This document shows positions 527 through 18,209 of a DNA stretch of 64,000 nt, one piece after another. The stretch spans positions 512,001-576,000 of the forward strand of contig OZ245742.1 of the NCBI GenBank assembly GCA_965227295.1. The letters run 5' to 3'. The notes below the pieces were generated by a model. The model had not been told where the DNA came from, did not search any database, and saw only the letters and a list, made by a program, of their open reading frames with translations. The DNA comes from Leptonemataceae bacterium (GTDB lineage Bacteria; Spirochaetota; Leptospiria; Leptospirales; Leptonemataceae). The stretch's first letter is position 1. The number at the start of each line of letters is the position of its first letter. The position numbers were made by a program, and so were the translations under genes.

Positions 527-555
527 TTGACGATATTAGCGACTCCCCGCTAATA
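527..555 (+). promoter_or_regulatory. Candidate promoter/operator upstream of the giant Hint protein gene
   Basis: TTGACG at 527-532, followed by a perfect inverted repeat TATTAGCG-N6-CGCTAATA (534-555) that ends 43 bp before ATG 599. Confidence 0.4.
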
Positions 556-598
556 GTTTGCTAACACGGCCGGCTACGCCTGCCGGAAGAGTCCGTCC

Positions 599-3500
599 AT
601 GCGAATTCCGTCCAATTTCCGCCGCATCACCAGTGCCATCACCGCCGTCGCGCTGGCCCTGGCCACCGTCATCCCGCACCCGTCCCTGCTCGCGCAAACC
701 CCGGTGCCATCCCTCACCCCGCAAGGATTCGACGAGGCCGAGTACGCGGCCCTCTATAATAGTGCGGCGGGCGCGGGCAGTGTCTCCGAATGGCAGGCGT
801 TGATCGACCAGGGCCTGGCCACGTCGCCGCCCTGGGAGGCGACACTGGACACGGAAATCGCCGGCCACGTAGGCGCGGTGACGGACTCGGACGCGTACAA
901 CAACACCGCCGCCTATCAGGACTATCTGGCCGCCCAGCTCGAATTGCAGAAGGGCGCGGACGTGGCGCAGTGGAACGCGGGCTTGAGCGCGCAGGAGGAG
1001 TACCAGCGACAGGTGTATCTCGCCGCGCTCATGAGCAACTACAGCGACGAGATGGAGCAGGAGGCGAACGCCGCGGGCTCGAACGCAAGCTGGCAGGATC
1101 AGTTCGATTACGATTACTACCAGGGCTTAAGAGAATTTGAAACGGCCTTAAGCGCCGTGGACCAGGAGTACGCAACGACGATCAGCGAGCTGGATCAGCA
1201 GGATGCAATCTTCCAACAACGCCTGGCGGAGATCCAGCAGTACGAAGACACCGTGCGTTCGAACATTACGGCGCAGGTGACGAACCTCACGAACTTTCTT
1301 TCGAGCAGCGGCATGTTCTACGACGGCGGCGGCAACCTGAACGCCGCCGGCCTGCAATTGCAGACGCTCCTCGACGACGTCAACGACGGCCTGAACAACG
1401 GCACGGCACTGTCGACGATCAGCGATCAGATTGCCACGTACATGGAAGCGCGGGAAACGGACGCGTTGCAGGAGCAGGCGGACTGGACCGCGGCAAGCAC
1501 GTGGAACGCGAACACTTCGAACACGATCGCCATCGGCAGCCTGAGCGTCTGGTTGGATAGCTATCCGGAAGTCGTCGGGATCATGAACTACGTTCTCGAC
1601 GGGGATGCATCCACGGCCATCGACCAGATTCGCGGGTACATGGGATACGACTCGGCCGTTGATATTACCATCACCGGCGCGGACGCGATCGGTTTTTCGT
1701 ACAGCTATCCTCCTACGGCCCAATGGGGCGGCGAGACGCTTTCGAGTCTGCCTGATAACCCGCATGATTACTACGGAACGACCATCAGCACGAAGTGGGC
1801 GGCGTTCACGTACATCGCATCCGGCTGCTTCGGGCCGAACGTCTGGAATCCGGGGCCCTGCGGTTATCCGGCGAGCCTGCCGGAACAATACACGACAATC
1901 ACTTACGATTTCACCGCCACCGACACCAACGCCGTCGCCAACGCCGCCACCTGGGGCGGTTACGCTGCGGCGCTGGGGCCGATGGCAAACACCTGGCGAA
2001 ACGACGTCATCCCCGCGATTCAGAACTGGGAATCCCAGACCGCCGCCCTCGAAGCGAACTACAGCGCCTGGCAGGCCGAGGCGTCGTCGTTGCGTTCCCA
2101 GGCGGAGTCGCAGTACGCGCAGAGCCGCACGGCGATCCTGGGCGAACGCTCGCAGTGGCTCGGTGAGGTTACACGCATTGCGAACGCCGGCGAAAGCCTC
2201 AGTCGCTCGGCACAAACTTCTACGGAAGAAGAGTTAGCACCGGCGCCGTTACCGGTCGTTCCCCGCGTTACGGCGCAGAGCATCTATAACCGCAATCGCG
2301 ATTCGGAGAACAGCCTCGCCGCGGCCCGCAGCCTGGGCCGGGACACGCTGAGTAATCTTACTTCACCGGATACGAGCGCCCTCGAAAACTTTCTCGAAAC
2401 CACGCAACGCAGCCTCACCGGCCTGCAAAACCTCGCATATACCGAGTCGATTCAGCTCCAGGCCGAAGAGGCGCGGCAACAGACCATCGACATGCTCGTG
2501 GGTATGGTGACGCAGGACAACGTCCAGGAAGAACGCCAGGAGATCGATTACAACCCGTACGAAGACGTGCCGGTATTGCTGCGTCCGGAGGGCTGGGAGA
2601 ACGTCAAAGCGACGCGCCTCGAAACGAACGAGGAGATGCAGGAACGTATCGAGAACCAGCGCGCGCGAAACTACACCGACGTCAAGGTCGGCAAAGACGG
2701 CACGATCATTGCCAGCCGCGCGATCAAGACGGGCGAGGCCGTGTGGAACGGCGGCGATCTTACGAACACGGACGGCTACAGCGCCGCCTACGAAACCCAG
2801 ACCGTCACGATTCGCCCGCCCCAGGCCATCAAACTCGCGAGCGGCGGTGATTTGTTCGCGAGCTGGGACTACGACGAGCTACAAGAATCACATGAAGAGA
2901 ACTTAAGCGACTTCTACGCCGGTCTGGATCGCAAGGTCCAGGCGGCCCAGGGTCAACTCGCAAACGCGAACGAACTGTTCACCGCCCGCGAAACGGCCTT
3001 CCAGCAAAACGCGGCAAGCCAGGCGCAGACCTGGTCCATGATCAAGTCCCTCGTGACTTCGATGATGGGCGGCATGGACCTCGGCTCCGCCCTTGTTGAT
3101 TACGCGAAGAATCAGATCATCGGCCAGGTGGCTTCGCAGATCGAAACGATGACCGGCATTCCCGCGGGTTTCATGTCGAGTATTCTCGGCGGCGCAAATA
3201 TTGAGCAGGCGATGCAATCTTACGCCTGGCAGGTCGTGGGCAGTCACATCGATGAAGTCACCGGCATCTCGGGCCTCGGCTCACAACTCACGGGCATGCT
3301 GCAAAAGCAGATGGCGAAGAAAGCCGCGCGCAACGGGCCGATGGGCAAACTCGCGAACAGCATGGCCGCGATGACGATGGGCGGCGGTTTCGGCGCGATG
3401 GCCGGCTTTATGATGGGCGGGCCGATGGGCATGCTTGCGGGTGCGGCGATGGGTGCGGCTACCGGCGGCGCGATGAACGAGGCCGGCGCGGCCGGATTCG

Positions 3501-6415
3501 CGGCACCGATGGCGGATGTGTTTTATGAAAACCCCATGTTGATGGATGCAACGGCTTACGCAACGGCCAGCGCAACCGGCAACCCGGGCGTCTGGTACGG
3601 CTACCAGGCGATGAAGGGAAGTTACATGGGCGGCACTGTGGGTGCGCTAACGAGCATGGCGGACTCCGCGTTGATGGCGACGCAGTTGGTTGGGGTCGAT
3701 GCGAGTATTTCGTATACGTTCGATGACGGCTTCGGTGGGAGTCTGGGGATTGGCGGAGAGTACGGTAGCATCGGTGTTAATTACAGCGAGAGGAACGGCG
3801 TGGGGGCGTACGGACGCCTCGGCCAGGGTGAGGGATTGAGCATTGGGTTCAGCGTGAGTGAGCACGGCGGGAATTCGATTAACGCCGGATACAGCAGTGG
3901 TGGTGTGAACCTCGGGGTGAGTTATAGTGATCAGACGGGCTTTGGTGCGAACGCGGGATTTGGTGGCGAAATTGCGGATGGTGTGAACGGCAACCTCGGG
4001 TTGAGCTGGAGTGAGACGGAAGGTGTTGGAGCGAATGCGGGAATAACTTACGGCAACGGCGATATCGACAGCATGCTCGGCGGCGGACTCAGTTATACGC
4101 AGAACAGCGGGCTGTCCGCGAGCTTAACTGTCGCCGGTGGTACGTTAGGGACGATTACGGCGGACGGGTTTCAATACAACGCCAACTTCGCAAAAGACGC
4201 GGCCGGGGCGGCGTTGAAGAAGAAGTACGTGGAGGATCGGAAGGCGGAGCGGGCGGAGGAGTTGGAGAAGACGCTTGAGGAGAACCGCAAGAACATGTCG
4301 CCCGAAGAGCGGGCGGCATTCGATAAGCTGAAATCTGTGGAAGATAAGGTCGCGTTCTTGAAGGAGAAGGCCGAGCAAGGCGGCGATGATGCGGTGGTGA
4401 ATGATGCGTATGGGGAGTCGTGGGATAGTCAGGACGGGCTGACAGGATTGCTGGGGAGCTTTGATCTCGGGCAGGATATGCTCAATTTCGCGAATGAAAT
4501 CACAGGTACAAACAGCGACAATACCGGATACATTGATGAGCGAGGAGACTTTCATGTGCGGACATGTTTTCCGGCATGGATGCCCGTCACTGTGGAAGGC
4601 GGCCATCTCGAAGAAATTCAGAACGTGAGAGCCGGCGACCGCGTCCTGACCTTCAATGAAAAAACCGGCGAGTTCGAGTACAAACCAGTCCGCACAGTGT
4701 GGGAGCGCCAGACACACGAGTTCCACGAACTAACATTCGAAGACGGCGTTTTTGTCGAGACGACCTGGTCTCACCCTTTTTATGTAAAAGATCGCGGCTG
4801 GGTGCCGGCTCATAAGCTTCAGCCTGGAGATCTTGTACATACGCGCGCGAGCCTGGCCGCCCAGCAAAGACAGGACAATCTCATCCATAATATTCAACTC
4901 GCAAGTCTTAGCGAAGATAATCTGCGTGAGAGCGGCCTGGACCCGCCGTTGCGCCTGTTAACAGTGAATGTCACGCTGCGCTCGGAAACGGTCTATAACC
5001 TGGACGTCGAAGATAACGATAACTTCTTCGTAAGCTCGGCCCGCATCCTCGTTCACAACCAGAACCACTACGATGATGCCGGCTACGGCGGCGCAACGTT
5101 CTCCGCGGACGGCACCAGCGGATATGGAAACGAGGAGCGCGTCGGCGATGACTCCGGACCTACGGAATACGAACAATTCATCCGCGCTACGAACCAGCCG
5201 ATCATCGAAATCTTCCCGAACGAAGATGAGAACACGAGCACTCCCGCCGCGGAGCCGGAAGATACCGGGTCAGCCACCGCCGGCACCGATGGCGTACCGG
5301 CCGAAACCACTGACGCATCCCGACAACCAGACAATCCGCGCCCTCAGGAGCCGCGCGAAAATGCAACACCGGAATCATCCGCTCCTCAACCCGAAAAGGT
5401 GACTCCAGGCACTACTCTCTGGGAAGATGTCACTGAGTTCTTTACCGCGCCGATTGTGGGTAGCTCATCCATCGCAGACCTGGCTCTGGATTCGGTAGAA
5501 TTTATTCCGGTCGTGGGAGACATTGTGGGTGCGGCTCGCTCCGGAATCGAACTGGCAACGGCAGTCTCAAATGGTGATTGGCCCTCCGCCGGTTGGGCGG
5601 CCGCAGGCGTCGGGCTGAGTATCGTAGGATTGATTCCAGGCATTGGCGATGCCGCGACAGCGATTAAGCATAGCATGAAGCATGGCGCCGATGTTCTGAA
5701 ACACGGCGATGATGTTCTTAAGCACGGCGATGATGTTCTTAAGCACGGAGACGATATCATTCGGCATGCGGACGACTTGCCTACACGCGCCGGCCCGGAT
5801 GTGGCTCCCGGCGCGAATCGCCCGGGCGGCGAAGCGGCCCAGGAACTTCAAGATCGCCAGCGACGCGAGCAGATCGAGCGACAGGAGCGGTATGGTTCCG
5901 ATGAGGGTTCCGGGCAGACACAGCCGCAACCGCAACAACAGCAGCAGGCACCGGATGGAAGGCCGGAGTTTGGCCAGCGTGCGAATCAAGGCGCAATAGG
6001 AACTCAGAATGAACAATTGGGCCGTGGTAATGCTGGCGATCCCACAGGGCCAGGGTACACGCAAGCCCAAAGCCCGGGAGAGCCGAGACAACAAATCCCT
6101 GCAACTCCGAGCGACAATGTAAATCGCGGCGAGATTCCTCCTGCACGTGGATCGCAAAGCCCGACGGGGCGCAGCGAGAATACGAAATCTCAAGATGCAA
6201 CGACCACCGGTAGTGATCGCACGCAAGAGATGCGGGCACAACAACAACATCAGAAACAGGAGCAAATGCGACGCGAGGCCCAAAAAAAAGCGATAGAGCA
6301 GGAGCAACGGAGGCGGCAACAAAATGAGCTAATACAACAGCAAGAGAAACTGCGGAAAGCGCGAGAGCGGCAACAGCAATGGGAGAGCCAACAAAGGCAA
6401 AATATGCAAGACTAA
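599..6415 (+). CDS. Large secreted polymorphic protein (TIGR04388-like, Leptospira large structural protein family) with Hint domain and variable C-terminus
   Basis: Signal peptide (AVALALATVIPHPSLLA-Q), coiled-coil N-terminus and Gly/Met zipper. Gly-Ser beta-repeats, Hint CFPAWMPV...ETTWSHPFYV...VYNLDVEDNDNFFV...LVHN, and a pre-toxin-like DSVEFIPVVGDIV segment. Confidence 0.8.
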   Translation: MRIPSNFRRITSAITAVALALATVIPHPSLLAQTPVPSLTPQGFDEAEYAALYNSAAGAGSVSEWQALIDQGLATSPPWEATLDTEIAGHVGAVTDSDAYNNTAAYQDYLAAQLELQKGADVAQWNAGLSAQEEYQRQVYLAALMSNYSDEMEQEANAAGSNASWQDQFDYDYYQGLREFETALSAVDQEYATTISELDQQDAIFQQRLAEIQQYEDTVRSNITAQVTNLTNFLSSSGMFYDGGGNLNAAGLQLQTLLDDVNDGLNNGTALSTISDQIATYMEARETDALQEQADWTAASTWNANTSNTIAIGSLSVWLDSYPEVVGIMNYVLDGDASTAIDQIRGYMGYDSAVDITITGADAIGFSYSYPPTAQWGGETLSSLPDNPHDYYGTTISTKWAAFTYIASGCFGPNVWNPGPCGYPASLPEQYTTITYDFTATDTNAVANAATWGGYAAALGPMANTWRNDVIPAIQNWESQTAALEANYSAWQAEASSLRSQAESQYAQSRTAILGERSQWLGEVTRIANAGESLSRSAQTSTEEELAPAPLPVVPRVTAQSIYNRNRDSENSLAAARSLGRDTLSNLTSPDTSALENFLETTQRSLTGLQNLAYTESIQLQAEEARQQTIDMLVGMVTQDNVQEERQEIDYNPYEDVPVLLRPEGWENVKATRLETNEEMQERIENQRARNYTDVKVGKDGTIIASRAIKTGEAVWNGGDLTNTDGYSAAYETQTVTIRPPQAIKLASGGDLFASWDYDELQESHEENLSDFYAGLDRKVQAAQGQLANANELFTARETAFQQNAASQAQTWSMIKSLVTSMMGGMDLGSALVDYAKNQIIGQVASQIETMTGIPAGFMSSILGGANIEQAMQSYAWQVVGSHIDEVTGISGLGSQLTGMLQKQMAKKAARNGPMGKLANSMAAMTMGGGFGAMAGFMMGGPMGMLAGAAMGAATGGAMNEAGAAGFAAPMADVFYENPMLMDATAYATASATGNPGVWYGYQAMKGSYMGGTVGALTSMADSALMATQLVGVDASISYTFDDGFGGSLGIGGEYGSIGVNYSERNGVGAYGRLGQGEGLSIGFSVSEHGGNSINAGYSSGGVNLGVSYSDQTGFGANAGFGGEIADGVNGNLGLSWSETEGVGANAGITYGNGDIDSMLGGGLSYTQNSGLSASLTVAGGTLGTITADGFQYNANFAKDAAGAALKKKYVEDRKAERAEELEKTLEENRKNMSPEERAAFDKLKSVEDKVAFLKEKAEQGGDDAVVNDAYGESWDSQDGLTGLLGSFDLGQDMLNFANEITGTNSDNTGYIDERGDFHVRTCFPAWMPVTVEGGHLEEIQNVRAGDRVLTFNEKTGEFEYKPVRTVWERQTHEFHELTFEDGVFVETTWSHPFYVKDRGWVPAHKLQPGDLVHTRASLAAQQRQDNLIHNIQLASLSEDNLRESGLDPPLRLLTVNVTLRSETVYNLDVEDNDNFFVSSARILVHNQNHYDDAGYGGATFSADGTSGYGNEERVGDDSGPTEYEQFIRATNQPIIEIFPNEDENTSTPAAEPEDTGSATAGTDGVPAETTDASRQPDNPRPQEPRENATPESSAPQPEKVTPGTTLWEDVTEFFTAPIVGSSSIADLALDSVEFIPVVGDIVGAARSGIELATAVSNGDWPSAGWAAAGVGLSIVGLIPGIGDAATAIKHSMKHGADVLKHGDDVLKHGDDVLKHGDDIIRHADDLPTRAGPDVAPGANRPGGEAAQELQDRQRREQIERQERYGSDEGSGQTQPQPQQQQQAPDGRPEFGQRANQGAIGTQNEQLGRGNAGDPTGPGYTQAQSPGEPRQQIPATPSDNVNRGEIPPARGSQSPTGRSENTKSQDATTTGSDRTQEMRAQQQHQKQEQMRREAQKKAIEQEQRRRQQNELIQQQEKLRKARERQQQWESQQRQNMQD
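2451..4050 (+). repeat. Long direct repeat copy A, shared with 11609-13208
   Basis: Near-identical colinear DNA at a constant offset of 9158 bp, starting at ttcagctccaggccgaaga. Differences are mostly synonymous. Confidence 0.95.
4565..5059 (+). other. Hint (bacterial intein-like) autoprocessing domain 1
   Basis: Starts with Cys (TGT 4565). Block B TxxH (TWSH), block F VYNLDV, ends in His-Asn. The next residue is Gln. Confidence 0.9.
5678..5779 (+). repeat. 21-bp coding tandem repeat (KHGDDVL-type heptad, 4 clear copies plus 1 degenerate)
   Basis: aagcatggcgccgatgttctg / aaacacggcgatgatgttctt / aagcacggcgatgatgttctt / aagcacggagacgatatcatt / cggcatgcggacgac. Confidence 0.9.
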
Positions 6416-6445
6416 CTATGGTTTAATGTCCAACGTGACGCAAGT

Positions 6446-7465
6446 ATGGATCGCCAACACAGAATCTCAGAACTACGCGAGATTGTTCGCGCGAATCCAA
6501 ACGATGTAGAAAACTGGCTGGAGCTGGGTCTTGCACTAACGCAAGCCGGGCTTTATGACGAAGGAATCCTGGCGCTGACCAAGGCCTATGAACTTGCTCC
6601 GCATAATGCTGAGATCGGAAATTGGCTGGCATATTCTCTGAACGAAAGCGGTCAGTTCAAGGAGTCCTTATCCATCTCAACAGCTCTCGTATCTCAAACA
6701 CAGTCCGCAACTGCCCTTTACTATATGGGTTGGTCGTTACGAGAGCTGGGAGAATGGGAAGCAGCACTCAAGGCCTTTGAGAAAGGCATTCAGCAGGAAC
6801 CGGAGAGTCAGAACCTCTTCGGCGCTGCAACGGTATTTATACATCAGGGACGTCATGCAGAAGCCGCAGAGTACTTACGGAAGGCTCTGCAAGTAGATGG
6901 GGGGGAGAATCCAGAGATACTCTACTTGCTTGCCATGTCGGAAATTGAATTGGGTCAGCGCGAACAGGCCGTACAAAGCCTGGAACAATGTCTACAGGCC
7001 GCCCCAGACCACATAGCTGCAGCCAATGAATTGGGTCTTTTGTATACACAAGTCAATCGCATCCCGGATGCTTTGACACTCTTGAATGATACTCTGAAGC
7101 GCGATTCTGAGCACATTGTGACCCTCAACAATCTCGGCTATGCCTATTTCCTGGCGAGGTTATATAAGAAAAGTGAATTTTATCTGCGAAAGGCATTAGA
7201 TCAAGATCCGGATTACTCCAATGCCCTTTATGGACTCGGCAGTGTCTATGCAGAATCCGGGAACTACGAGGCTGCCGTCATAGAACTGGAGAAACTGGTC
7301 TCCGTGGCGCCGGACTTCATCCCCGGCTGGATCAGCTTGATTAACAGCTATGTGCAGAATAAGGATAGTAGGGAAGCCTCGGCAACCTTAAAGCGAGCAC
7401 TGCAGAGACACCCGGAATCCGAACAATTGAAAGGCCTGTCGCTGGAACCGGATTCCCAAGACTGA
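6446..7465 (+). CDS. TPR protein (type A), candidate immunity/chaperone
   Basis: Multiple TPR motifs (W..LG..L...G.Y.EA...L.KA.EL.P; LNNLGYAY). Lies 30 bp after the toxin stop. Confidence 0.85.
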   Translation: MDRQHRISELREIVRANPNDVENWLELGLALTQAGLYDEGILALTKAYELAPHNAEIGNWLAYSLNESGQFKESLSISTALVSQTQSATALYYMGWSLRELGEWEAALKAFEKGIQQEPESQNLFGAATVFIHQGRHAEAAEYLRKALQVDGGENPEILYLLAMSEIELGQREQAVQSLEQCLQAAPDHIAAANELGLLYTQVNRIPDALTLLNDTLKRDSEHIVTLNNLGYAYFLARLYKKSEFYLRKALDQDPDYSNALYGLGSVYAESGNYEAAVIELEKLVSVAPDFIPGWISLINSYVQNKDSREASATLKRALQRHPESEQLKGLSLEPDSQD

Positions 7466-7491
7466 ACCTTGAGTCCCCATAGTGAACCCCT

Positions 7492-8505
7492 ATGGATTTC
7501 GATAGGCGCATTTCTAAACTGAGAAGCCGGCTACAGGAATTTCCGGATGATCCGGAAAACTGGGTCGAGTTAGCGTTGGCTCTCGGAGAAAGTGGTGACC
7601 ACGCTAGCGCCGCCTTCGCGTTTACCAAGGCAAGCGAATTAGCCCCGGATTCCACGGTTCTTAGACTACGCCTGCTGACATCGCTGCGTAACGCTGAGCA
7701 ATATGAAGAAGCAGTGGCGTTGGCTGACAAAATTCTGGCAGAACACGAGTGCCCGGACGCCACCTATATAAAAGCGTGGAGCCTGAGAGAACTCGGGGAG
7801 CTGGAAAAAGCACTCGATCTATTTTTATCCGGCATTAATGATTATGGAGATGGACGCAACTTTACGGGGGCTGGAACAGCACACGCCCGAATGGGCAACT
7901 ATGAAGATGCCCTGCGTTGCTATGAGAAGGCAATAGAGGTTGAGCCTGCAAATCTCTCCGACTCTGAATTTTTATATACTGTAGCCATTGCCAAAATCGA
8001 AACAAACAACCCGACAGAAGCAATCCAATTGCTTTCACAAGCCCTTACACTTGATCCAGAGCACAGGGAGGCGGGAAATGAATTGGGCAAGCTCCTGGCA
8101 TATGAAGGGAAATACGATGCGGCCATTCAAACTTTTCTCAGGGTTCTTGATCATTATCCTTCTGATTCTGTCACCTTAAACAACATCGGTCATGCATACC
8201 TTTATGCGGGAATGCCGCAGAAGAGCCTAACGTACTTTGACGAAGCGATTGAAACGGCTCCGGACTATGTAAACTCCAGATTTGGAAGGGGTTCCGCCAG
8301 AATCTCGATCCACGATTTTGCCGGAGCTGTAGAAGACTTTAAGACGTGCATTGAACTTATGCCTGAGGAGGAATCCGGCTGGATAAACCTGGCCCGATGC
8401 CAACTTGAGCTAAGTGACACAGAAGCCGCCGAAGCAACAATCCAGAAGGGACTGGAGCTACACAATGATGCGCAAAAACTAAGGAGCCTTCTTAAGTATA
8501 TTTGA
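7492..8505 (+). CDS. TPR protein (type B), candidate immunity/chaperone
   Basis: TPR motifs. NNIGHAYLYAGMPQKSL is shared with the 10032 ORF. Confidence 0.85.
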   Translation: MDFDRRISKLRSRLQEFPDDPENWVELALALGESGDHASAAFAFTKASELAPDSTVLRLRLLTSLRNAEQYEEAVALADKILAEHECPDATYIKAWSLRELGELEKALDLFLSGINDYGDGRNFTGAGTAHARMGNYEDALRCYEKAIEVEPANLSDSEFLYTVAIAKIETNNPTEAIQLLSQALTLDPEHREAGNELGKLLAYEGKYDAAIQTFLRVLDHYPSDSVTLNNIGHAYLYAGMPQKSLTYFDEAIETAPDYVNSRFGRGSARISIHDFAGAVEDFKTCIELMPEEESGWINLARCQLELSDTEAAEATIQKGLELHNDAQKLRSLLKYI

Positions 8506-8571
8506 GAAGGCCATCCTGTTCACAGAATTTGCACGTCACCAATCCCCATCTTCCGCGCCCCTACCCGTCAC

Positions 8572-9594: not shown

Positions 9595-9636
9595 CGACCC
9601 GGTAACTTCCATGCGAAGACCCAGGGTTCCAATGAA

Positions 9637-10002: not shown

Positions 10003-10031
10003 ATCTCTATTAGAACCCGCACATTTCGGCC

Positions 10032-11039
10032 ATGGACCGGCAAATTCAAGAACTACGAGACGCAGTTCGTCAGGATCCGAACGATCCGGAGAACTGGTTG
10101 GAACTCGGCATTGCACTTCGAGAGTCTGGAGACGCAGAGGAAGCGATACTGGCGCTATCGAAGGCGCACGAACTCGCGCCTGAACATGACTTAACGGCAC
10201 TCAATCTCGCGTTAGCCCTGGGAGACGTCGATCGGCATCAGGAAGCCATTCGTGTCGCGGATGGTATTCTCGGTCGCAAAGATTCTGCCGATGCCCGTTA
10301 TCTGAAGGCCTGGTCATTGAATCAACTCGGGCAGTCCCAGGAGGCCCTGGAGATATTCCTGCGGGGTATCCAGAGCGAAGGGGATGCACGCAGCCACTCG
10401 GGCGCAGCCTCGGCCTATGCCCGACTCGGACGGTATCGAGAATCACTCAATGCCTATGAGCATGCCCTCGAACTGGACCCGGATTTCAACGAAGACGCTC
10501 AGTTTCTGTACGGCCTGGCATTGGCTCAATCTGCGCTGGGACAACGATCTGTCGCGATAGAAACCCTCACCCGCGCCTATGCGATGGCACCCCAAAACCG
10601 GAGCATCGGCAATGAATTAGGCAAGCTTCTCGGGTTGAGCGGCCAGTATACGAAAGCAATCGAGGTCCTGACTGAGGTATCGGAAAATTTTCCTGACGAT
10701 TACTTCCCCCTGAACAATCTCGCGCATGCATATCTCTACGCAGGTATGCCGCGCAAGAGCCTCCCGTACTTCGACCGCACGATCGAACTCGCCCCCGACT
10801 ATCCGAACTCCCGATTCGGCCGCGGTGATGCCCTGATGCAAGTCAAAGACTACGGCAGCGCAATTGATGATTTTCTCCAGGCCACACGAATCATGCCGGA
10901 AGTCGTCTACGGCTGGAAAAGCCTTGTGCAATGCTATCTTGAGCTGGGAAAAGTCAATGAGGCAAAGTCCGCGCTCGGTGAAGCACTACAACTTCATCCG
11001 GATGCCCGGGACCTGCTGGACATGCAACAGATCCTGTAG
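10032..11039 (+). CDS. TPR protein (type B'), paralog of 7492 ORF
   Basis: TPR motifs. NNLAHAYLYAGMPRKSL..FD..IE.APDY.NSRFGRG is shared with 7492. Confidence 0.85.
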   Translation: MDRQIQELRDAVRQDPNDPENWLELGIALRESGDAEEAILALSKAHELAPEHDLTALNLALALGDVDRHQEAIRVADGILGRKDSADARYLKAWSLNQLGQSQEALEIFLRGIQSEGDARSHSGAASAYARLGRYRESLNAYEHALELDPDFNEDAQFLYGLALAQSALGQRSVAIETLTRAYAMAPQNRSIGNELGKLLGLSGQYTKAIEVLTEVSENFPDDYFPLNNLAHAYLYAGMPRKSLPYFDRTIELAPDYPNSRFGRGDALMQVKDYGSAIDDFLQATRIMPEVVYGWKSLVQCYLELGKVNEAKSALGEALQLHPDARDLLDMQQIL

Positions 11040-11092
11040 CACTGAGACAGTTCGTTTCATCGGAGATCCTCGAATGGAAGCCGGGTGTTGGC

Positions 11093-11160
11093 TGGTACCG
11101 CGAAGAGAAAGGCCGTATCATCTTGCAGTTGGTCAAGGGCGAGAAGCAGCTCGTCGACGT
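11093..11160 (+). pseudogene. Possible fragment of an IS3-type OrfA/HTH transposase
   Basis: Translates as WYREEKGRIILQLVKGEKQLVDV, which resembles transposase N-terminal HTH openings. It is cut off by the ~420-bp repeat. Confidence 0.25.
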
Positions 11161-11581
11161 CCACCAATCCGGGGAGCCCACCCAAGAACTTCCCCTACCT
11201 GGGCCCAGATCCTTAATTTTTCGCGAGCATTGTCTTGCAAAAATTCATTCCCCAATCCATTCTGTGCTTTCCGCGCTCAACAAGCGCACCGGAATCTCGG
11301 TTCGTAACCGAACTCCGGCCATCCGTTCTTTAACAGAACGCAACGATTCTCGAACGGGTCCGTTGCGTAAAAGGCAAGCCCGCCTGGGCCGATACAAGCA
11401 ATTCCGCACACGTGTGCGGAATTCAAGGTCGCGCGCATCGCCACTGCTAACCTGTGAATAACAAGCGTTAGGGACACGCAGGGTGGCGAAGCCAGTCTCG
11501 CGCAGCGAGACCGAAGCGAAGCGGAGCCCGGAGTGGCCCGACGGCCCGCCGCCTCCGCGGCGCGGCGGGCCGGAACGCCCA
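11160..11581 (+). repeat. ~420-bp structured non-coding element, copy 1
   Basis: Colinear with 17555-17975. Contains TTGCAA-17bp-CATTCT, several hairpins, a perfect 24-bp palindrome (11400-11423) and a terminal GC-rich REP-like hairpin. Confidence 0.9.
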
Positions 11582-14500
11582 ATCAAACATCGTTACTGCT
11601 TCACCTCGTTCAGCTCCAGGCCGAAGAAGCCCGGCAACAGACCATCGACATGCTCGTGGGTATGGTGACGCAGGACAACGTCCAGGAAGAACGCCAGGAG
11701 ATCGATTACAACCCGTACGAGGACGTGCCGGTGTTGCTGCGTCCGGAGTGCTGGGAGAACGTCAAAGCGACGCGCCTCGAAACGAACGAGGAGATGCAGG
11801 AACGCATCGAGAACCAGCGCGCGCGAAACTACACCGACGTCAAAATCGGCAAGGACGGCACGATCATTGCCAGCCGCGCGATCAAGACCGGCGAGGCCGT
11901 GTGGAACGGCGGTGATCTTACGAACTCGGACGGCTACAGCGCCGCCTACGAAACCCAGACCGTCACGATTCGCCCGCCCCAGGCCATCAAACTCGCGAGC
12001 GGCGGTGATTTGTTCGCGAGCTGGGACTACGACGAGCTACAAGAATCACATGAAGAGAACTTAAGCGACTTCTACGCCGGTCTGGATCGCAAGGTCCAGG
12101 CGGCCCAGGGTCAACTCGCAAACGCGAACGAACTGTTCACCGCCCGCGAAACGGCCTTCCAGCAAAACGCGGCGAGCCAGGCGCAGACGTGGTCCATGAT
12201 CAAGTCGCTTGTGACTTCGATGATGGGCGGCATGGATCTCGGCTCCGCCCTCGTGGATTACGCGAAGAATCAGATCATCGGCCAGGTGGCTTCGCAGATC
12301 GAAACGATGACCGGCATTCCCGCGGGTTTCATGTCGAGTATTCTCGGCGGCGCAAATATTGAGCAGGCGATGCAATCTTACGCCTGGCAGGTCGTGGGCA
12401 GTCACATCGATGAAGTCACCGGCATCTCGGGCCTCGGCTCACAACTTACGGGCATGTTGCAAAAGCAGATGGCAAAGAAGGCCGCGCGCAACGGACCCAT
12501 GGGCAAACTCGCAAACAGTATGGCCGCGATGACGATGGGCGGCGGTTTCGGCGCGATGGCCGGCTTTATGATGGGCGGGCCGATGGGCATGCTTGCGGGT
12601 GCGGCGATGGGTGCGGCTACCGGCGGCGCGATGAACGAGGCCGGCGCGGCCGGTTTCGCGGCACCGATGGCGGATGTGTTTTATGAAAACCCGATGCTGA
12701 TGGATGCGACGGCCTACGCAACGGCCAGCGCAACCGGTAACCCTGGCGTCTGGTACGGCTACCAGGCGATGAAGGGAAGTTACATGGGCGGCACCGTTGG
12801 TGCGCTAACGAGCATGGCGGACTCGGCGCTGATGGCGACGCAGTTGGTGGGCGTGGATGCGAGTATTTCGTATACGTTCGATGACGGCTTCGGTGGAAGC
12901 CTGGGTTTCGGCGGGGAATACGGCAGCGTTGGTGTGAGTTACAGTGAGCGGGACGGCATGGGGGCGTACGGGCGTCTGGGGTCCGGCGACGGCTTGAGCA
13001 TTGGGTTTAATGTGAGTGAGCACGGCGGGAATTCGATTAACGCCGGATACAGCAGCGGCGGTGTGAACCTCGGGGTGAGTTATAGTGATCAGACCGGCTT
13101 TGGTGCGAATGCTGGGTTTGGTGGTGAAATTGCGGATGGCTTAAACGGCAATCTCGGGTTGAGCTGGAGTGAGACGGAAGGTGTTGGAGCGAATGCGGGA
13201 TTAACTTACGGTAACAGTGACTTAGGGAATGCCATGGGCGCGGGCCTGAGTTATACGCAGAACAGCGGACTCAGCGCGAACGTGAGTCTGGCCGGCGCCA
13301 CACTGGCCTCGATCGCCCAGGGCGGAAATTTGCAGTTTAACAGCAATTTCGCGAGCGATGCCGGGCGCGGGGTGTTGAAAGAAGAGTACGTTAAGCAACG
13401 GAAAGAAGAACGCCTCGATGGTCTGGAGGAAGCGCTGGATGACGCCGGTGAGCTGACGGAAGAAGAGAAGCAGTTTTTGAAAGAGAATCCTGGTAAACGA
13501 CAGGCGTTTTTGGAGAAGAAGGCGGCGGAGATTAAGGATCGCGTTGAGAAGCTTGGTGATAAGTCCTCGGAAGCGGATGATTACGGCAGCTCCTGGGATA
13601 ATCAAGGCGGCCTCACAGGGCTCCTCAGTTCGTTCGACCTTGGCAAAGATATTCTCAATTTCGCGAATGAGATTACGGGCACGAATAGCGATAATACCGG
13701 TTTCGTTGACTCCGAAGGTAAGTTCCACGTTCGGACTTGTTTTGTCGCCGGGACCCTGGTTCGTGTACGCAAAGATGCTCCTGGCGCTTTTGAAGAAGGC
13801 GGAGAATGGTTTAAGAAAATTGAGGATGTGGGTGTCGGCGATCATGTCCTGAGCTGGGACGAAAAATCCGGTGCCGTTAGCTTCCAGCCCGTGACGGAGC
13901 TGTTCCGACATGATGTGGAATTGATCTTCGAGATCGCGTACGTAGACGGCACGATAATTGAGACGACGTGGAACCACCCGTTCTTTGTGCCGGATGTCGG
14001 TTGGGTGGAAGCACGCCACCTTCGCGGCGGGGATCGCTCTTTGTCTGCGGCCGGGGAGATGCTGGTGATTGCGAGCGTGCGCGAAATGCGGCGTGAGGCG
14101 CGGGTATTTAACTTTGAGGTGAAGCGGAATCATACTTATTTTGTAGGGCCAGCGGGCGTGCTGGTGCATAACTATGATTTGCGGACCGGAACCGTGGATG
14201 AGGAACGTGACCTCAAAGAGGTCCTTGCCAAAGTTAATGAAGAATTGGGCCTTGATTATACTTTAGAGGAACTGGCCGATTTGAATGGTATTGAGCCGCA
14301 AGGTCATTGCCTGACATATGCCAGTGTCACATGCGATTATCCTATAGTTGAGGGACAACAGATCCTGACTGAGGAGCAATACAAGGACTTATCAGAAGAT
14401 GAGCGCACGAGCTTCTTTGATAACCCTAAGAATCCTAAGGAAACTGGAGTCTACCAGGTCACCCTAAGTGCAGGCGCGATGTTTTTTTCAGGGCATTACT

Positions 14501-14952
14501 GGGACATCGGGTTTGTCGATGAAACGACACATATTGGACGATTCACACAATCGCGGGGGCTACCGATCCAATCATATACTCGCACTATTGGCGAGGGCGG
14601 AGATATTACGGCGGGTATGACCATTCAAATGGTGGAAAACACAACAATTGAGGATTTTGTTTTTGGGAACGAACTATTCATGACTTCAGAAGTCGATGGC
14701 GGCCTTCCGTTCTGGAATCCAGGATTGATTATGCGTGCGAATAATAGCTACGCGGGTTGGCTCGCGAATTTCGGCCTGACCCCAGGCCTCGGAGTAGCGG
14801 TATCAAGTAACCAGACACCGGACCTGGCTGGAAATACAACTGCGCCCCTTGGAACAGGATGGTGGCCGGGTGGCCCCGCGACAATTTCAACGGAGCATTG
14901 TATCCTGAGTACGTCTCAAAAAACGGGACCAATAAGCGTGGATTGCCTTTGA
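11533..14952 (+). CDS. 5'-truncated (orphan/silent) cassette of the large Hint protein, with a different Hint and C-terminal domain
   Basis: From 11609 it matches residues ~618 onward of ORF 599 and lacks the signal peptide. Hint CFVAGTLV...ETTWNHPFFV...VFNFEV...LVHN-Y is followed by an unrelated C-terminus. Confidence 0.8.
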   Translation: MARRPAASAARRAGTPNQTSLLLHLVQLQAEEARQQTIDMLVGMVTQDNVQEERQEIDYNPYEDVPVLLRPECWENVKATRLETNEEMQERIENQRARNYTDVKIGKDGTIIASRAIKTGEAVWNGGDLTNSDGYSAAYETQTVTIRPPQAIKLASGGDLFASWDYDELQESHEENLSDFYAGLDRKVQAAQGQLANANELFTARETAFQQNAASQAQTWSMIKSLVTSMMGGMDLGSALVDYAKNQIIGQVASQIETMTGIPAGFMSSILGGANIEQAMQSYAWQVVGSHIDEVTGISGLGSQLTGMLQKQMAKKAARNGPMGKLANSMAAMTMGGGFGAMAGFMMGGPMGMLAGAAMGAATGGAMNEAGAAGFAAPMADVFYENPMLMDATAYATASATGNPGVWYGYQAMKGSYMGGTVGALTSMADSALMATQLVGVDASISYTFDDGFGGSLGFGGEYGSVGVSYSERDGMGAYGRLGSGDGLSIGFNVSEHGGNSINAGYSSGGVNLGVSYSDQTGFGANAGFGGEIADGLNGNLGLSWSETEGVGANAGLTYGNSDLGNAMGAGLSYTQNSGLSANVSLAGATLASIAQGGNLQFNSNFASDAGRGVLKEEYVKQRKEERLDGLEEALDDAGELTEEEKQFLKENPGKRQAFLEKKAAEIKDRVEKLGDKSSEADDYGSSWDNQGGLTGLLSSFDLGKDILNFANEITGTNSDNTGFVDSEGKFHVRTCFVAGTLVRVRKDAPGAFEEGGEWFKKIEDVGVGDHVLSWDEKSGAVSFQPVTELFRHDVELIFEIAYVDGTIIETTWNHPFFVPDVGWVEARHLRGGDRSLSAAGEMLVIASVREMRREARVFNFEVKRNHTYFVGPAGVLVHNYDLRTGTVDEERDLKEVLAKVNEELGLDYTLEELADLNGIEPQGHCLTYASVTCDYPIVEGQQILTEEQYKDLSEDERTSFFDNPKNPKETGVYQVTLSAGAMFFSGHYWDIGFVDETTHIGRFTQSRGLPIQSYTRTIGEGGDITAGMTIQMVENTTIEDFVFGNELFMTSEVDGGLPFWNPGLIMRANNSYAGWLANFGLTPGLGVAVSSNQTPDLAGNTTAPLGTGWWPGGPATISTEHCILSTSQKTGPISVDCL
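11609..13208 (+). repeat. Long direct repeat copy B
   Basis: Near-identical to 2451-4050. Confidence 0.95.
13738..14172 (+). other. Hint autoprocessing domain 2
   Basis: Cys start (TGT 13738), TWNH, VFNFEV, terminal His-Asn. The next residue is Tyr. Confidence 0.9.
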
Positions 14953-14965
14953 TTCGGTTGCATGA

Positions 14966-15322
14966 ATGATGAACCTGGGGACAAGACGAATTCTATGCAT
15001 TACGGGTTTTGGATTGAGCCTGTTTCTAGCCAGCCAGTGGGCTTCTCCGCAGCAGATTGAGACCAATGCATTACTTGTCGTGCCAGGTGGCTATTGTATC
15101 GTCGGAGCATACGAATACAATGGGATACTAGAGAAAGAACAGGCTTTCTCTTACTGTGCTTCAGGCGTGCTGCAAGGTGGCGATGGGCACGGGATTCGAG
15201 AGTATCATAAGATTGCGGAAATCTGGGTTCCTTATCCAAAGGTTGTCGAAATCCGTGATTTCCCGGAGTGCTTACATGTACTAGCCAACACCCGATCTGA
15301 CACTCCTGCCTGTCAGATATGA
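14966..15322 (+). pseudogene. Putative cognate immunity/partner gene of cassette 2, interrupted by IS481 (last ~15 codons are IS-derived)
   Basis: Starts 13 bp after the cassette stop. N-terminal hydrophobic segment and LLVVPGGYC motif. The IS terminal repeat begins at 15277, inside the ORF. Confidence 0.55.
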
Positions 15323-16431
15323 TCAGGTCGATACCTGATGCTGTTTATGCAGCATCTTTTCACGCGCCACGGCGATGGATTCAGCGAACGTTTGCGCCGG
15401 CGTCTTGCCGAAGCAGTACTTGCCGCTGTGCGTCCGTTCCTGGTTATACTCGAGCATCCATTCATCCAGATCGGCTTGCAGCTCCTCGATGCTTGAGTAA
15501 AGTTTCTTGCGAAACGCGACGGCGTAGAATTCTTCCTGAATCGTCTTGTGAAAGCGTTCGCAGACGCCGTTCGTTTGCGGATGCCGCGCTTTGGTTTTGG
15601 TGTGATCGATGTCCTCCATCGCGAGGTACAACTCGTACTCGTGATTCTCCGGCTTGCCGCAGTACTCCGTGCCGCGATCGGTGAGCACGCGCAGCAGCGG
15701 GATGTTGTAGTCCGCGTAGAACGGCAACACACGATCGTTCAGCAAGTCGGCCGCCGTCAGTGCGTTCTTGCGATCGTAAAGTTTTGCAAAGCCGACCTTA
15801 GCGTACGTGTCGATGAAGGTCTGCTGGTAGATCCGCCCCACGCCCTTGATATTGCCCACGTAATACGTGTCCTGCGAGCCCAGATAGCCGGGGTGGTGCG
15901 ATTCGACCTCGCCGTGCGCTTCTTTGTCCTGGCGGCCTTTCTCAAGCGCCGCGACCTGTGCCTCGGTGAGAATGATCCCCTCTTGCGCGACGCGGGCTTC
16001 CAGGGCCTTCAGACGCTTCTTGAACGTCTCCATGTCGTGCCGCAACCAGACCTGACGCACGCCGCCCGGTGAGATCGAAACGCCGCGCTTGCGCAGCTCA
16101 TTCGACACGCGCAATTGACCGTGCGCCGGCTTCTCGAACGTGAACTCGATCACCGCGTCTTCCACATCCGCCGGAATCCGGTTCTTCTTGTTCGGCTTGC
16201 GCCGCGTGAGATCCTTCAGGGCCTCTTCGCCTCCGGTCTCGTACAACCGCTGATACCGGTAGAACGTATCGCGTGATACGCCCATCACCCGGCAAGCCTC
16301 TGCAACGTTATTCAGAGTACGGGCCAGCCTCAAGATGCCCACCCGGTGCTTTACGATTTTTTGTTCTGCTGTCATCTCTTTCCTCCGATACAAATTATAT
16401 CGGAGTGTCAGATGGAATCTTGACTATTTCA
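15277..16431 (-). mobile_element. IS481-family insertion sequence
   Basis: Imperfect terminal IRs tgtactagccaacacccgatctgacactcc vs tgaaatagtcaagattccatctgacactcc (23/30). Single DDE transposase. gcttaca occurs at 15270-15276 and 16437-16443. Confidence 0.85.
15323..16375 (-). CDS. IS481-family transposase
   Basis: HTH (NVAEACRVMGVSRDTFYRY) and rve integrase core (QDTYYVG, LTDRGTEY, PQTNGVCERFHKT). ATG with a GGAGG RBS at 16375. Confidence 0.93.
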   Translation of the reverse strand: MTAEQKIVKHRVGILRLARTLNNVAEACRVMGVSRDTFYRYQRLYETGGEEALKDLTRRKPNKKNRIPADVEDAVIEFTFEKPAHGQLRVSNELRKRGVSISPGGVRQVWLRHDMETFKKRLKALEARVAQEGIILTEAQVAALEKGRQDKEAHGEVESHHPGYLGSQDTYYVGNIKGVGRIYQQTFIDTYAKVGFAKLYDRKNALTAADLLNDRVLPFYADYNIPLLRVLTDRGTEYCGKPENHEYELYLAMEDIDHTKTKARHPQTNGVCERFHKTIQEEFYAVAFRKKLYSSIEELQADLDEWMLEYNQERTHSGKYCFGKTPAQTFAESIAVAREKMLHKQHQVST

Positions 16432-16707
16432 AGTGAGCTTACAAAGCGTCTTGCTCAAGCACGCTTTACCGGTTGGCGCCTTATTGGAATAGCAGATCTG
16501 ACGGCGTATCCAGTTTCATTACACATATCCAGTATAGCTTTAGCTACTCTTGAAAAAGAAGGAACGACACTGACATTGTTGTTTGAAATTTCTCATAAAA
16601 GGGCTCTCCGAATTCGAGCGTTTGCAGCTGATTTTAGCAATCAAACGCATTTTGTAGCATCGGAGGGGCTCTTCTACCCATGAGACGGCCAGAGATCTCG
16701 TGCAGTT

Positions 16708-16760
16708 TTACGCCACTTTCCTTAATTTTTTCCCGGCCATTTTCTTGCAGAAATTCATTC
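16708..16760 (+). repeat. Partial third copy of the promoter-proximal part of the 420-bp element
   Basis: ttacgccactttccttaattttttcccggccattttcttgcagaaattcattc resembles 17594-17646 and 11210-11250. Confidence 0.7.
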
Positions 16761-16942
16761 TAAAGTGCGACTAGTATATTTCATCTCTGAACAAATGGAG
16801 AAAGGTGTACTTATTGAAAAAACACAGATACTTACTTTGCATGGCGACAGGCTCCAGAGGCTGGAATCATATCCGGGAAATTTTGGAGGGGCCAGTGCTT
16901 ATTTCATGATCCCACTCGTTCTCTTGGGTCAGAGCGAGAAGG

Positions 16943-17392
16943 GTGCTAAGGAACCATAACGTGACGCTCAAAGCATCCCGATTTTGCTTCTTTATTGGTT
17001 TGGGTCTTGTTTTTACGGGCATAGTATATTTCCTCCAAGGCTTGCGGACGGCAGAAGTGCAAAGTCCCGAAAGCCTTCTGTTGCAGCCCGGAATTTACTG
17101 CGTTTTCCAGTCTGGCAAACTGCCTTCGCAGGGCTCTCAATTTTGTATGAAAGGTTACTGGAACAAGAGCTATGGAACTCTCTACTACCATCATACACTG
17201 CTTGTCATTGTGCCGCAGGTGTGGCCCGGGAGGCAAAGTCGGATCGGAAGGCAGATTAAGCACGAGCCTCTTTATGTCAGTGCGTCTATGTATCATTCTG
17301 GGTTCGGTCTGTCGATTCTCGTTCTGGGGCTTTTCTTGCTGAGGCGAGGGTATGAATTTTTTAAGTGGCTCCTCATTCGGCTACTTAGCTGA
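16943..17392 (+). CDS. Membrane protein (2 TM), apparent paralog of the 14966 ORF; candidate orphan immunity protein
   Basis: N- and C-terminal hydrophobic helices. LLLQPGIYC...FCMKG...YHH...VIVP mirrors LLVVPGGYC...YCASG...YHK...IWVP. The start may be GTG 16961. Confidence 0.5.
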   Translation: MLRNHNVTLKASRFCFFIGLGLVFTGIVYFLQGLRTAEVQSPESLLLQPGIYCVFQSGKLPSQGSQFCMKGYWNKSYGTLYYHHTLLVIVPQVWPGRQSRIGRQIKHEPLYVSASMYHSGFGLSILVLGLFLLRRGYEFFKWLLIRLLS

Positions 17393-17393
17393 G

Positions 17394-17554
17394 GATAACG
17401 TCCCGAATCTTTCGCGAAAAGGTGGGTTCTCCTCACCTGACCTCCGGCGATCATTTGTTCCTTCAGCACCTCCCGCAACAGGTCGATGTTGAGATACTTG
17501 CGTGAACTCCAGTTCGTCGCCGCCACATGCCGCGCCGCGACCAACGCCAGGCCA
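17394..17554 (-). pseudogene. IS256-family transposase 3' remnant with right end
   Basis: The minus strand translates as LALVAARHVAATNWSSRKYLNIDLL, like IS256 C-termini. The end gataacgtcccgaatctttcgc resembles IS256-type terminal IRs. Confidence 0.55.
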
Positions 17555-17975
17555 TCCACCAATCCGGGGAGTCCGCCCAAGGACTTCCCCCACTTACGCC
17601 ACTTTCCTGACATTTTTCGCAAGCATTGTCTTGCAAAAATTCATTCCCCAATCCATTCTATGTCTTCGCGCTCAACAAGCGCGCCGGATTCTCGGTTCGT
17701 AACCAAACTCCGGCCATCCGTTCTTTAACAGAACGCAACGAATCCCGAACGGGTCCGTTGCGTAAAAACAAGCCGCCCTCGCCCGGCGTTAGCAATTCCG
17801 CACACGTGTGCGGAATTCAAGGTCGCGCGCATCACCACTGCTAACCTGTGAATAACAAGCGTTAGGGACACGCAGGGTGGCGAAGCCAGTCTCGCGCAGC
17901 GAGACCGAAGCGAAGCGGAGCCCGGAGTGGCCCGACGGCCCGCCGCCTCCGCGGCGCGGCGGGCCGGAACGCCCA
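17555..17975 (+). repeat. ~420-bp structured non-coding element, copy 2
   Basis: Colinear with 11160-11581. Palindrome aattccgcacacgtgtgcggaatt at 17794-17817. Confidence 0.9.
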
Positions 17976-17977
17976 GA

Positions 17978-18071
17978 GAAGTCACCGGCATCTCCGGCCT
18001 CGGCTCGCAACTCACGGGCATGTTGCAGAAGCAGATGGCAAAGAAAGCCGCGCGCAACGGGCCGATGGGCA
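17978..18071 (+). pseudogene. 94-bp internal fragment of the large Hint protein gene (third, vestigial cassette)
   Basis: Matches 3254-3347 and 12412-12505, and encodes EVTGISGLGSQLTGMLQKQMAKKAARNGPMG. Confidence 0.9.
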
Positions 18072-18209
18072 CCTTACCAGGCATCAGTCTTTTCTTTTCT
18101 CCGACGAAACTCGAAAGTACCGAAAGATTGACGTCCACGAAACCGTAGCACAAAAGATCCATCGGCGCGCCGATGAAGCCGTTGCCACGCCGAAGGAGAC
18201 GAACACGAA

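Follow-up and report, generated by a model that had tools for sequence, protein, structure and literature searches.

How does a bacterial genome come to hold, behind one complete gene for a very large protein, truncated copies of that gene with different 3′ ends, and what might such copies be used for? This question is raised by a locus at the left end of a 64,000-nucleotide stretch of DNA from a Leptonemataceae bacterium (hereafter the window; assembly GCA_965227295.1, contig OZ245742.1), which covers positions 512001-576000 of a single 5.94-Mb contig with a GC content of 59.8%. Gene 1 (599-6415) encodes 1938 amino acids (aa) and is followed by a 5′-truncated copy, called here orphan cassette 2, with its own C-terminal end (tip) and partner gene, and by a 94-bp remnant of a third cassette. 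We consider it probable, though well short of certain, that the locus is a polymorphic-toxin-type array, in which an expressed gene is accompanied by reserve cassettes, the growth of the array is marked by a non-coding trailer, and the tips can be switched. Both the layout and its interpretation in terms of toxins are already known; the part that we regard as new is a non-coding module, consisting of a leader and a repetitive extragenic palindromic (REP)-like repeat, which meets the truncated genes at near-exact junctions.

Results

A complete gene and its truncated copies

All features described below lie on the plus strand of the window, except for one insertion sequence. The four elements that a sequence-only reading of this DNA had described (gene 1, the truncated copy, its own tip and partner, and the 94-bp remnant) were all found where it had placed them. 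The product of gene 1 has a signal-peptide-like N-terminus and a helical body, after which come a Gly-rich region (about aa 1000-1150) and a coiled-coil linker and, finally, a PT-HINT domain and tip A. Its assignment to a TIGR04388-like family was borne out by a score of 291.1 bits against TIGR04388 (Lepto_longest; curated NCBIfam cut-off 45) over aa 36-637 and further stretches. The N-terminus, which is basic, hydrophobic and AxA-like, looks like a Sec signal peptide when judged by eye. Pfam recognises PT-HINT (PF07591; 53.5 bits at aa 1337-1414, cut-off 27.7), Intein_splicing and Hint in the same protein, and a separate PT-HINT match of 74.3 bits lies in cassette 2 at about 13738-14172, so that both Hint domains of the sequence-only reading were recovered. 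In the Hint domain of gene 1 (aa 1319-1487; 4553-5059, from the Pfam ranges, with motifs taken from the translation) Cys1 stands in HVRTC, the TxxH motif reads TWSH, and the terminal HN is followed by Q. By inspection, both Hints retain Cys1 in HVRTC, TxxH and the terminal His-Asn, the next residue being Gln or Tyr. Judging from the established chemistry of inteins and bacterial intein-like domains, these motifs fit C-terminal cleavage without splicing.

Cassette 2 (11606-14952) lacks residues 1 to about 617 of gene 1, and its similarity to gene 1 begins at about residue 617-618. BLASTN aligns 2447-4110, the left homology arm, with 11606-13268 at 94.0% identity over 1668 columns and at an offset of 9158, which was also given by the repeat finder; long duplicated matches in the window are far beyond chance. 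Thus, the missing N-terminal part and the common block of about 1.66 kb agree with what had been read from the letters. The frame of the cassette is intact, with its own PT-HINT and a tip B that is unlike tip A, and a 118-aa open reading frame (ORF) comes next, again as described earlier. Its longest ORF (11533-14952, 1139 aa) starts inside the REP-like repeat and scores 100.3 bits against TIGR04388, on the mid-region of the family. The remnant of the third cassette (17978-18071), which corresponds to gene-1 residues 886-917, is 94.7% identical to 3254-3347 and 92.6% identical to 12412-12505, and begins 2 nt past the end of a REP copy.

The identity of the copy to gene 1 is not uniform. At the protein level it amounts to 96-100% over most of aa 653-1152 (one 50-residue bin falls to 86%), and past about aa 1152 it decreases to 38-70% per 50-residue bin. 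This drop spans the coiled-coil linker and the whole Hint; therefore, the exchanged unit comprises linker, Hint and tip, and reaches beyond the post-Hint domain alone. Codon differences within aa 653-1152 are 62 synonymous versus 13 non-synonymous, and within aa 753-1002 they are 22 versus 0. Such an excess of synonymous changes, together with the open frame, indicates that the orphan is not decaying as a pseudogene. Its divergence arose under selection at the protein level, as expected if the cassette formerly served as the 3′ end of a functional allele or continues to be used.

Assembly errors can arise at repeats of this length and similarity (1.66 kb, 94%), and the sequence-only reading had left room for a duplication created by the assembly. 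The two copies, however, differ at about 100 positions and run on into different unique sequence. Contigs from two public sequencing runs cover every unique part of 1-19000, the listed pieces without differences, and hold both sequence variants of the duplicated block. An artefact at this locus is therefore extremely unlikely. The depth of the unique parts in the read contigs looked even, per-contig depth not being a valid measure here.

A non-coding module in front of the truncated cassettes

Before both truncated copies stands a non-coding segment of about 420 bp (11160-11581 and 17555-17975, 91.7% identical), which had been missed in the sequence-only reading. In copy 1, the leader (11160-11455) contains a promoter-like box, four or five hairpins and a palindrome at 11400-11426, and continues into a REP-like repeat of the cassette subfamily (11456-11586; nhmmer 112.7 bits), whose complete 3′ end (...ACGCCCA) lies at 11582. 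Copy 2 occupies 17555-17979, with the leader at 17555-17849 and the REP at 17850-17979. The leader, taken as about 260 nt before the REP, has exactly nine copies in the genome, and all nine are found directly 5′ of 5′-truncated cassettes, at five loci. The box, TTGCAA-17 nt-CATTCT in copy 1, is conserved in all nine as an invariant TTGCAA and a -10-like hexamer, and the leader also carries an invariant palindrome of 26 bp. In a consensus promoter scan the box reached 8/12 at best and no site passed. A partial third copy of the box (16726-16781), located upstream of a 149-aa membrane ORF, suggests that the box may be a reusable promoter module.

Among 47 predicted base pairs of the leader hairpins, seven are changed on both sides, versus 2.6 expected from shuffles. 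For the two leader copies of the window, the antisense fold is the more stable one, and terminator-like hairpins lie on the opposite strand; the comparison of sense and antisense folding does not decide the strand. Rfam 15 gave no covariance-model match at E≤1 within 10900-18300. One short contig of run X2 runs along leader copy 1 as far as 11287, passes through 24 different letters and matches leader copy 2 from position 17708 onwards; with only 33 letters on its shorter side, it may represent a third leader variant or a leader-to-leader recombinant (deletion) in that sample.

The REP-like family is a multi-hairpin repeat of about 130 nt with 213 copies in the genome (nhmmer), many of them in adjacent inverted pairs. 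The 12 cassette-side copies are 88.7% alike, versus 74% to the other 142 full-length copies, and form a subfamily of their own across the five loci (of their 36 nearest neighbours, 35 likewise come from cassettes). Two identical group II introns with an ORF for reverse transcriptase (RT) and maturase (471 aa) reside at genome positions 2367840-2369723 and 2020597-2022480; each interrupts a REP copy 4 nt short of its 3′ end, in one case a cassette-side copy, and the last hairpin of the REP is evidently a homing site of these introns. A REP-associated tyrosine transposase (RAYT; Y1 transposase, PF01797) was not found in the genome by a search that was positive in 6 of 14 control genomes, and the best match to the integron integrase model TIGR02249 reached 85.6 bits versus a cut-off of 265. 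Since PF01797 is unmatched, no integrase exceeds the cut-off and the repeat is not attC-like, a RAYT-mobilised REP and an integron were both rejected as descriptions of the module.

Junctions between the repeat and the genes

Homology to the full-length protein of the locus resumes 2-12 nt past the 3′ end of the REP at nine of 11 junctions, and 26 and 113 nt past it at the other two. The joints fall at different positions of the genes, namely at gene-1 residues 618 and 886 in the window and at residues 1234, 1314, 3265, 3474 and 3574 elsewhere. Eight distinct junction types can be discerned at the five loci, in at least two unrelated protein families, with the same orientation throughout and nearly all at the exact REP 3′ end; several junctions are duplicates of each other: L2-A and L2-B each occur twice, and L3 has a pair.

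At six of the eight junction types the codon phase, counted from the REP end, is the same; a binomial calculation of our own puts this at about 0.06 for any one phase. Frames that stay open from REP or leader sequence into the orphan occur in window copies 2 and 3, at the two L3 junctions, at L4-a, at 2285634 in L2 and at L5, and two junction types have stop codons between REP and orphan. The window copies of the REP are devoid of the ATG that is present at the start of other REP copies, and no Shine-Dalgarno sequence is evident.

The family in this genome and in its relatives

The genome contains 13 genes with a TIGR04388 N-terminus and 14 frames with PT-HINT, ten of at least 1847 aa and four of 558-1164 aa. 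The tips of these 14 frames are mostly unrelated, and Pfam recognises in them only DUF6973 (twice) and a weak ParB_N. Thus, the variability of C-termini on which the sequence-only reading depended is found within this one genome. The closest paralogue of gene 1 is similar in the body (60% identity over aa 640-1150, 43.5% over aa 8-1190), and has neither the Hint nor the tip in common with it. Another TIGR04388 paralogue, of 1142 aa (genome 3928824-3931367), consists of the N-terminal and middle parts only, i.e. it is a 3′-truncated counterpart of the orphans.

The window locus is one of five arrays with the same leader/REP module; the others lie at genome positions 2275792-2296600 (minus strand), 2349489-2382615 (plus), 5005085-5026602 (minus) and 750677-770664 (plus). 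At one of them, a second TIGR04388 locus (2.28 Mb), the complete gene has three orphans and a remnant behind it. The three remaining arrays encode giant proteins of 4255-4422 aa, which share with the TIGR04388 family only the Gly-rich segment (gene-1 aa about 1002-1150). One giant protein of 4255 aa ends in an Ntox30 toxin domain and is followed by a HEAT-repeat gene; as this array has the same module in the same genome, it would support a toxin context for the window locus as well. At four of the five loci the orphans align only to C-terminal parts of the full-length genes; at the fifth, BLASTP found no orphan alignment and the local alignment score was 129. All ten larger orphans of the five loci are open for 558-1508 aa.

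The genome belongs to one family-level group (f1), and sixteen genomes of the same order (3.4-4.7 Mb, 99-100% complete) form a second (f2). The family is common across the order: a match to gene 1 was found in 31 of the 41 genomes of the order that were searched, its own included, and the best match among the 40 relatives is only about 30-33% identical. A search of 5.8 billion proteins with the gene-1 body returned three proteins, all of this genome. Ten RT genes are present in the genome, and by our own reading of the coordinates five of them (40883, 32821, 765390, 2368575 and 5028782) lie within about 15 kb of polymorphic-toxin-type loci.

An analogous arrangement occurs in a relative from the same order with a GC content of 38.5% (G040), in an array of at least ten Hint-containing orphans (G040:C2:290001-329000). 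Two unrelated classes of conserved non-coding trailer, each ending in a hairpin (AT-rich or GC), abut there on five different continuations, one of them inside a Hint, and every orphan has a trailer of one class or the other in front of it. Rfam scans of this array and of 10900-18300 revealed nothing beyond one sub-threshold RNaseP_arch match, taken as chance, and the G040 genome (99% complete) gave no RVT_1 match. Homology of trailers was considered on account of a loosely shared hairpin, GCCTAAC-12 nt-GTTAGGC; by pattern search it has four copies in G040 only and is at chance level elsewhere. We therefore speak of analogy between the trailers and not of homology.

Tips and partner genes

Tip A (450 aa; 5063-6412) is composed of an acidic, Pro-rich linker, a hydrophobic stretch resembling PT-TG, repeats of HGDDVLK and a tail of Q/E/R-rich low-complexity and coiled-coil sequence; no toxin domain was recognised in the translation. 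Its sole Pfam match, below threshold, is DUF4112. The PT-TG family, to which the sequence-only reading had pointed, did not hold up at the level of Pfam (PF14449 is unmatched even at E≤10). The nearest neighbour of tip A by language-model features in a protein atlas is a PT-TG cluster (0.91, 134 shared features), a lead at the feature level alone. A region search among 768 candidates returned no homologue, only tip A itself.

Tip B (258 aa; 14176-14949) bears no similarity to tip A. It matches no toxin family of Pfam at E≤10, reaches a best score of 0.83 without a family in the protein atlas, and gives an unusable AlphaFold single-sequence model (pLDDT 35.8). A word-based search among 2212 candidates of 626-1994 aa found tip B only. 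HMMER against 1.84 billion representatives yielded two matches, to Kelch/SprB-type repeat proteins on a short repeat-like stretch, which we rejected as non-homologous.

The partner genes of module A (6446-11039) encode four cytoplasmic tetratricopeptide repeat (TPR) proteins, at 6446-7465, 7492-8505, 8572-9594 and 10032-11039, together with a 121-aa ORF (9637-10002). The TPR genes make up two diverged tandem pairs, with identities of 62% within a/a′, 45% within b/b′ and 33-36% between a and b. Downstream of at least two other TIGR04388 paralogues (near genome positions 4078955 and 5095500) there are weaker TPR genes as well, and TPR proteins may be a recurrent class of partner in this family. 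Tip B is followed by the gene for a 118-aa protein with an N-terminal hydrophobic segment (14966-15322). Its last approximately 15 codons derive from an IS481-family insertion sequence on the minus strand (15277-16431; transposase 15323-16393, NF033577 284.6 bits), the insertion of which replaced the original ones and had escaped the sequence-only reading. This element is one of six copies in the genome, the five others being 94-99.9% identical, and a 1155-nt contig of high depth in the reads corresponds to it. Further downstream, a 149-aa ORF with hydrophobic segments (16943-17392), for which neither family nor paralogue was found, may serve module B as a second partner or immunity gene.

Discussion

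What speaks for a polymorphic-toxin-type array

The interpretation of the locus as a polymorphic toxin or variable surface protein, put forward in the sequence-only reading, stands in its architectural part: the TIGR04388 body, the PT-HINT domains, the orphan layout and the varied tips are all present. The part concerning toxin and immunity families found no counterpart in the databases. Because the tips match no known toxin family and the partners no known immunity family, toxicity and immunity are properties that we infer from the architecture.

Several findings weigh against the array reading. For both tips no toxin family, fold or homologue was found in Pfam, the protein atlas or the sequence searches; in tip A, low-complexity sequence stands where a toxin domain normally sits; and the partner genes of both modules matched no known immunity family. 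As no close relative of gene 1 is present in the collections searched, tip variation is seen within this genome only. The leader was not found in the 40 relatives (BLAST and covariance model), nor its palindrome in the genome and metagenome contig collections; found in no other genome searched, the leader has its conservation judged from nine paralogous copies. Nearly all of its compensatory changes come from one split, between the two window copies and the other seven. One leader copy (genome 2362793) meets its orphan without a REP, so that joints do not invariably coincide with the end of a REP. Finally, the junction expected from a 9158-bp deletion was not seen in the read contigs, an absence that is uninformative since the contigs break at repeats and short contigs are unable to resolve a recombinant junction inside a 94% repeat.

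A possible mechanism

If the locus is an array of this type, the product of gene 1 would be exported, and its PT-HINT domain, with Cys1, TxxH and terminal His-Asn and with no +1 nucleophile, would most likely cut off the C-terminal tip. The TPR array and the 121-aa ORF are candidate protective partners for tip A, and the 118- and 149-aa membrane ORFs for tip B. Copy 2 would then represent a former or reserve 3′ end which has been kept intact. Such arrays would grow as units made of a tip, its partner genes and a trailer are successively joined into the resident gene, the older 3′ end being pushed downstream each time. The conserved non-coding trailer would end each unit, and its last hairpin would mark the right-hand joint; for this reason the displaced, 5′-truncated older cassette would begin a few nucleotides past the trailer. 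The hairpin end might act through breakage or stalling at the hairpin, through a recombinase recognising the palindrome, or as the end of a transcript.

A displaced cassette could return to use by two routes. The sequence-only reading had proposed that one crossover could swap tip A for tip B, and the geometry of the 1.66-kb direct repeat does allow it: a single crossover in this block would delete 9158 bp, in frame, and put tip B on the body of gene 1. Alternatively, a two-sided exchange, with the 1.66-kb block on the left and the module of about 420 bp (11160-11581 and 17555-17975) on the right, would replace module A without loss of the reserve. The leader/REP module might in that case be understood as a cassette adaptor, the hairpin end of which sets the joint within a few nucleotides and which provides the right-hand arm for non-destructive exchange; it may also supply transcription of the orphan and an in-frame start. 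The same principle, realised with unrelated sequences in a distant genus, would make this a general way of building arrays. We offer this proposal tentatively and would not expect it to hold in all its parts.

Alternative explanations

The alternative to which we give most room is compatible with the array reading. It assumes that the orphans are independently expressed units, for which the leader gives a promoter and a structured 5′ untranslated region and the REP an in-frame start, so that the truncated Hint-tip protein and, above all, the protective genes are made inside the cell; the result would be an expression like that of toxin-antitoxin systems, or a standing immunity to the toxins of neighbours. 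The leader might drive expression of an orphan and its partner genes, in the way that rhs orphans can be expressed internally (PMC7043789). The box present in nine of nine leaders and, for the third time in the window, before the 149-aa gene argues for this view, as do the frames open into the orphan at several junctions, the prevalence of one codon phase, and the intact frames with synonymous-biased divergence, which fit translation. On the other hand, the failure of the box in the consensus scan, the stops at two junction types, the lack of ATG in the window REPs and of an evident Shine-Dalgarno sequence, as well as the terminator-like hairpins and more stable antisense folds on the opposite strand, make us regard it as possible and not as the expected outcome. 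Less credit, and in our judgement an unlikely status, should be given to the idea that the module is a non-autonomous mobile repeat (similar to miniature inverted-repeat transposable elements or REPINs) which gathered in plastic islands and owes its position to segmental duplication. The 213 REP-like copies with their many inverted pairs, the duplicated junctions, and the IS481 copies and group II introns that also reside within these loci are what such an element could leave behind. Simple insertion into a gene, however, is contradicted by the fact that no 5′ half of a gene is found upstream of any module. Eight junction types in at least two unrelated families, in one orientation and nearly all at the exact 3′ end, a cassette-side subfamily that extends across loci, a leader that occurs nowhere else in the genome and the lack of a RAYT-type transposase also speak against it.

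The nature of the tips could be questioned as well. If they were non-toxin parts of a surface protein or adhesin, swapped so as to vary antigenicity or binding, as happens with pilE/pilS and vlsE, then the failure to find a toxin or immunity family at the window locus, the largely disordered and repetitive tip A, and the layout of an expression site with silent cassettes and flanking repeats would all be accounted for. We hold this to be rather improbable: PT-HINT is by its Pfam definition a pre-toxin processing domain, and a self-cleaving domain within the variable unit would release the tip rather than display it. Moreover, each tip has small downstream genes of its own, needless for antigenic variation, and arrays with the same module include the Ntox30 tip with its HEAT-repeat partner. 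Group IIC introns have been proposed to take part in the genesis of integron cassettes, and a related possibility is that the cassettes are retro-copies, made when an RT copies toxin-immunity mRNAs ending at the REP hairpin and the cDNA is joined at the REP end. Variable 5′ truncation with complete 3′ ends, joints a few nucleotides past the terminal hairpin, the two introns close to REP ends, one of them in a cassette-side REP, and the RT genes near such loci could be explained in this way. However, the introns may merely target the hairpin, no full-length parent gene with tip B exists in the genome, and an RT-based origin is weakened by the relative G040, which has analogous junctions and no RVT_1 match; we find it very hard to accept.

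Relation to known systems

Polymorphic-toxin-type organisation of the window locus, which remains our preferred reading, has clear precedents. Rhs, CdiA, MafB and PT-HINT toxins are established examples of the layout and of its interpretation, and cassette arrays were described by Zhang et al. in 2012 (PMC3482391). The systems of that work, with their signal peptide, match the present locus and its signal-peptide-like N-terminus in the long body, HINT, the variable C-terminus, downstream cassette arrays and series of partner genes behind the complete gene, and differ in that the tips and partners found here lie outside the catalogued Tox/Ntox/Imm families available in Pfam. A close parallel is offered by Rhs of Salmonella Typhimurium, in which a full delivery gene is followed by a 5′-truncated fragment with a stretch of the body, another, toxic tip and its own protective gene, and in which recombination of the principal rhs gene with the orphan was shown experimentally to install the orphan toxin (PMC3967940). 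Unlike Rhs, the body is here of the TIGR04388 type instead of YD repeats, no type VI secretion context was seen, the unit of exchange takes in the entire Hint and a linker, and the toxicity of the tips is putative. Furthermore, each orphan is preceded here by a dedicated leader/REP with a precise end, which we did not find reported for orphan arrays in a non-exhaustive search of the literature.

In Leptospira, PT-HINT in a large protein has already been read as a feature of polymorphic toxins (PMC4751964). LA_3725 of L. interrogans and other TIGR04388 (Lepto_longest) proteins resemble gene 1 in their very large size, N-terminal membrane or signal segment and PT-HINT near the C-terminus; the account of LA_3725, in the parts of that paper devoted to it, treats a single gene and reports no orphan arrays (PMC4751964).

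With respect to its repeats, the locus can be compared to other switching and cassette systems. The pilE/pilS system of Neisseria and vlsE of Borrelia consist of an expression site and promoterless partial copies, with conserved short repeats at their flanks that can serve as recombination arms. In those systems, segmental conversion diversifies a surface antigen, whereas whole modules with partner genes are concerned here, and no conversion was observed. REP/REPIN and integron attC sites provide another parallel, in that a high-copy, hairpin-rich repeat marks each cassette boundary and a group II intron is found at the hairpin end; group IIC introns target terminators and attC sites. In contrast to REP/REPIN, no RAYT was found here. 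An integron would differ by an integrase above the cut-off, by an attC that is a single imperfect palindrome and not a multi-hairpin repeat of about 130 nt, and by cassettes that are whole genes and not gene fragments. We propose that the leader/REP module is a dedicated adjunct of orphan arrays; no description of such a module was found in full-text searches, which were non-exhaustive.

Significance

The origin and use of orphan cassettes have so far been described in outline, as displacement by incoming DNA and occasional recombination. Five arrays with at least eight independent joints, and an intron at the same hairpin end, provide a testable handle on the joining step, and this handle extends to the transcription of reserve cassettes and to exchange without loss of the reserve. 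For the TIGR04388 "longest protein" family, the interpretation as polymorphic toxins now reaches, at the strength given above, a lineage outside Leptospira. As nearly all of the tips and partners belong to no assigned family, this lineage would be a source from which candidate new folds of toxins and immunity proteins could be drawn.

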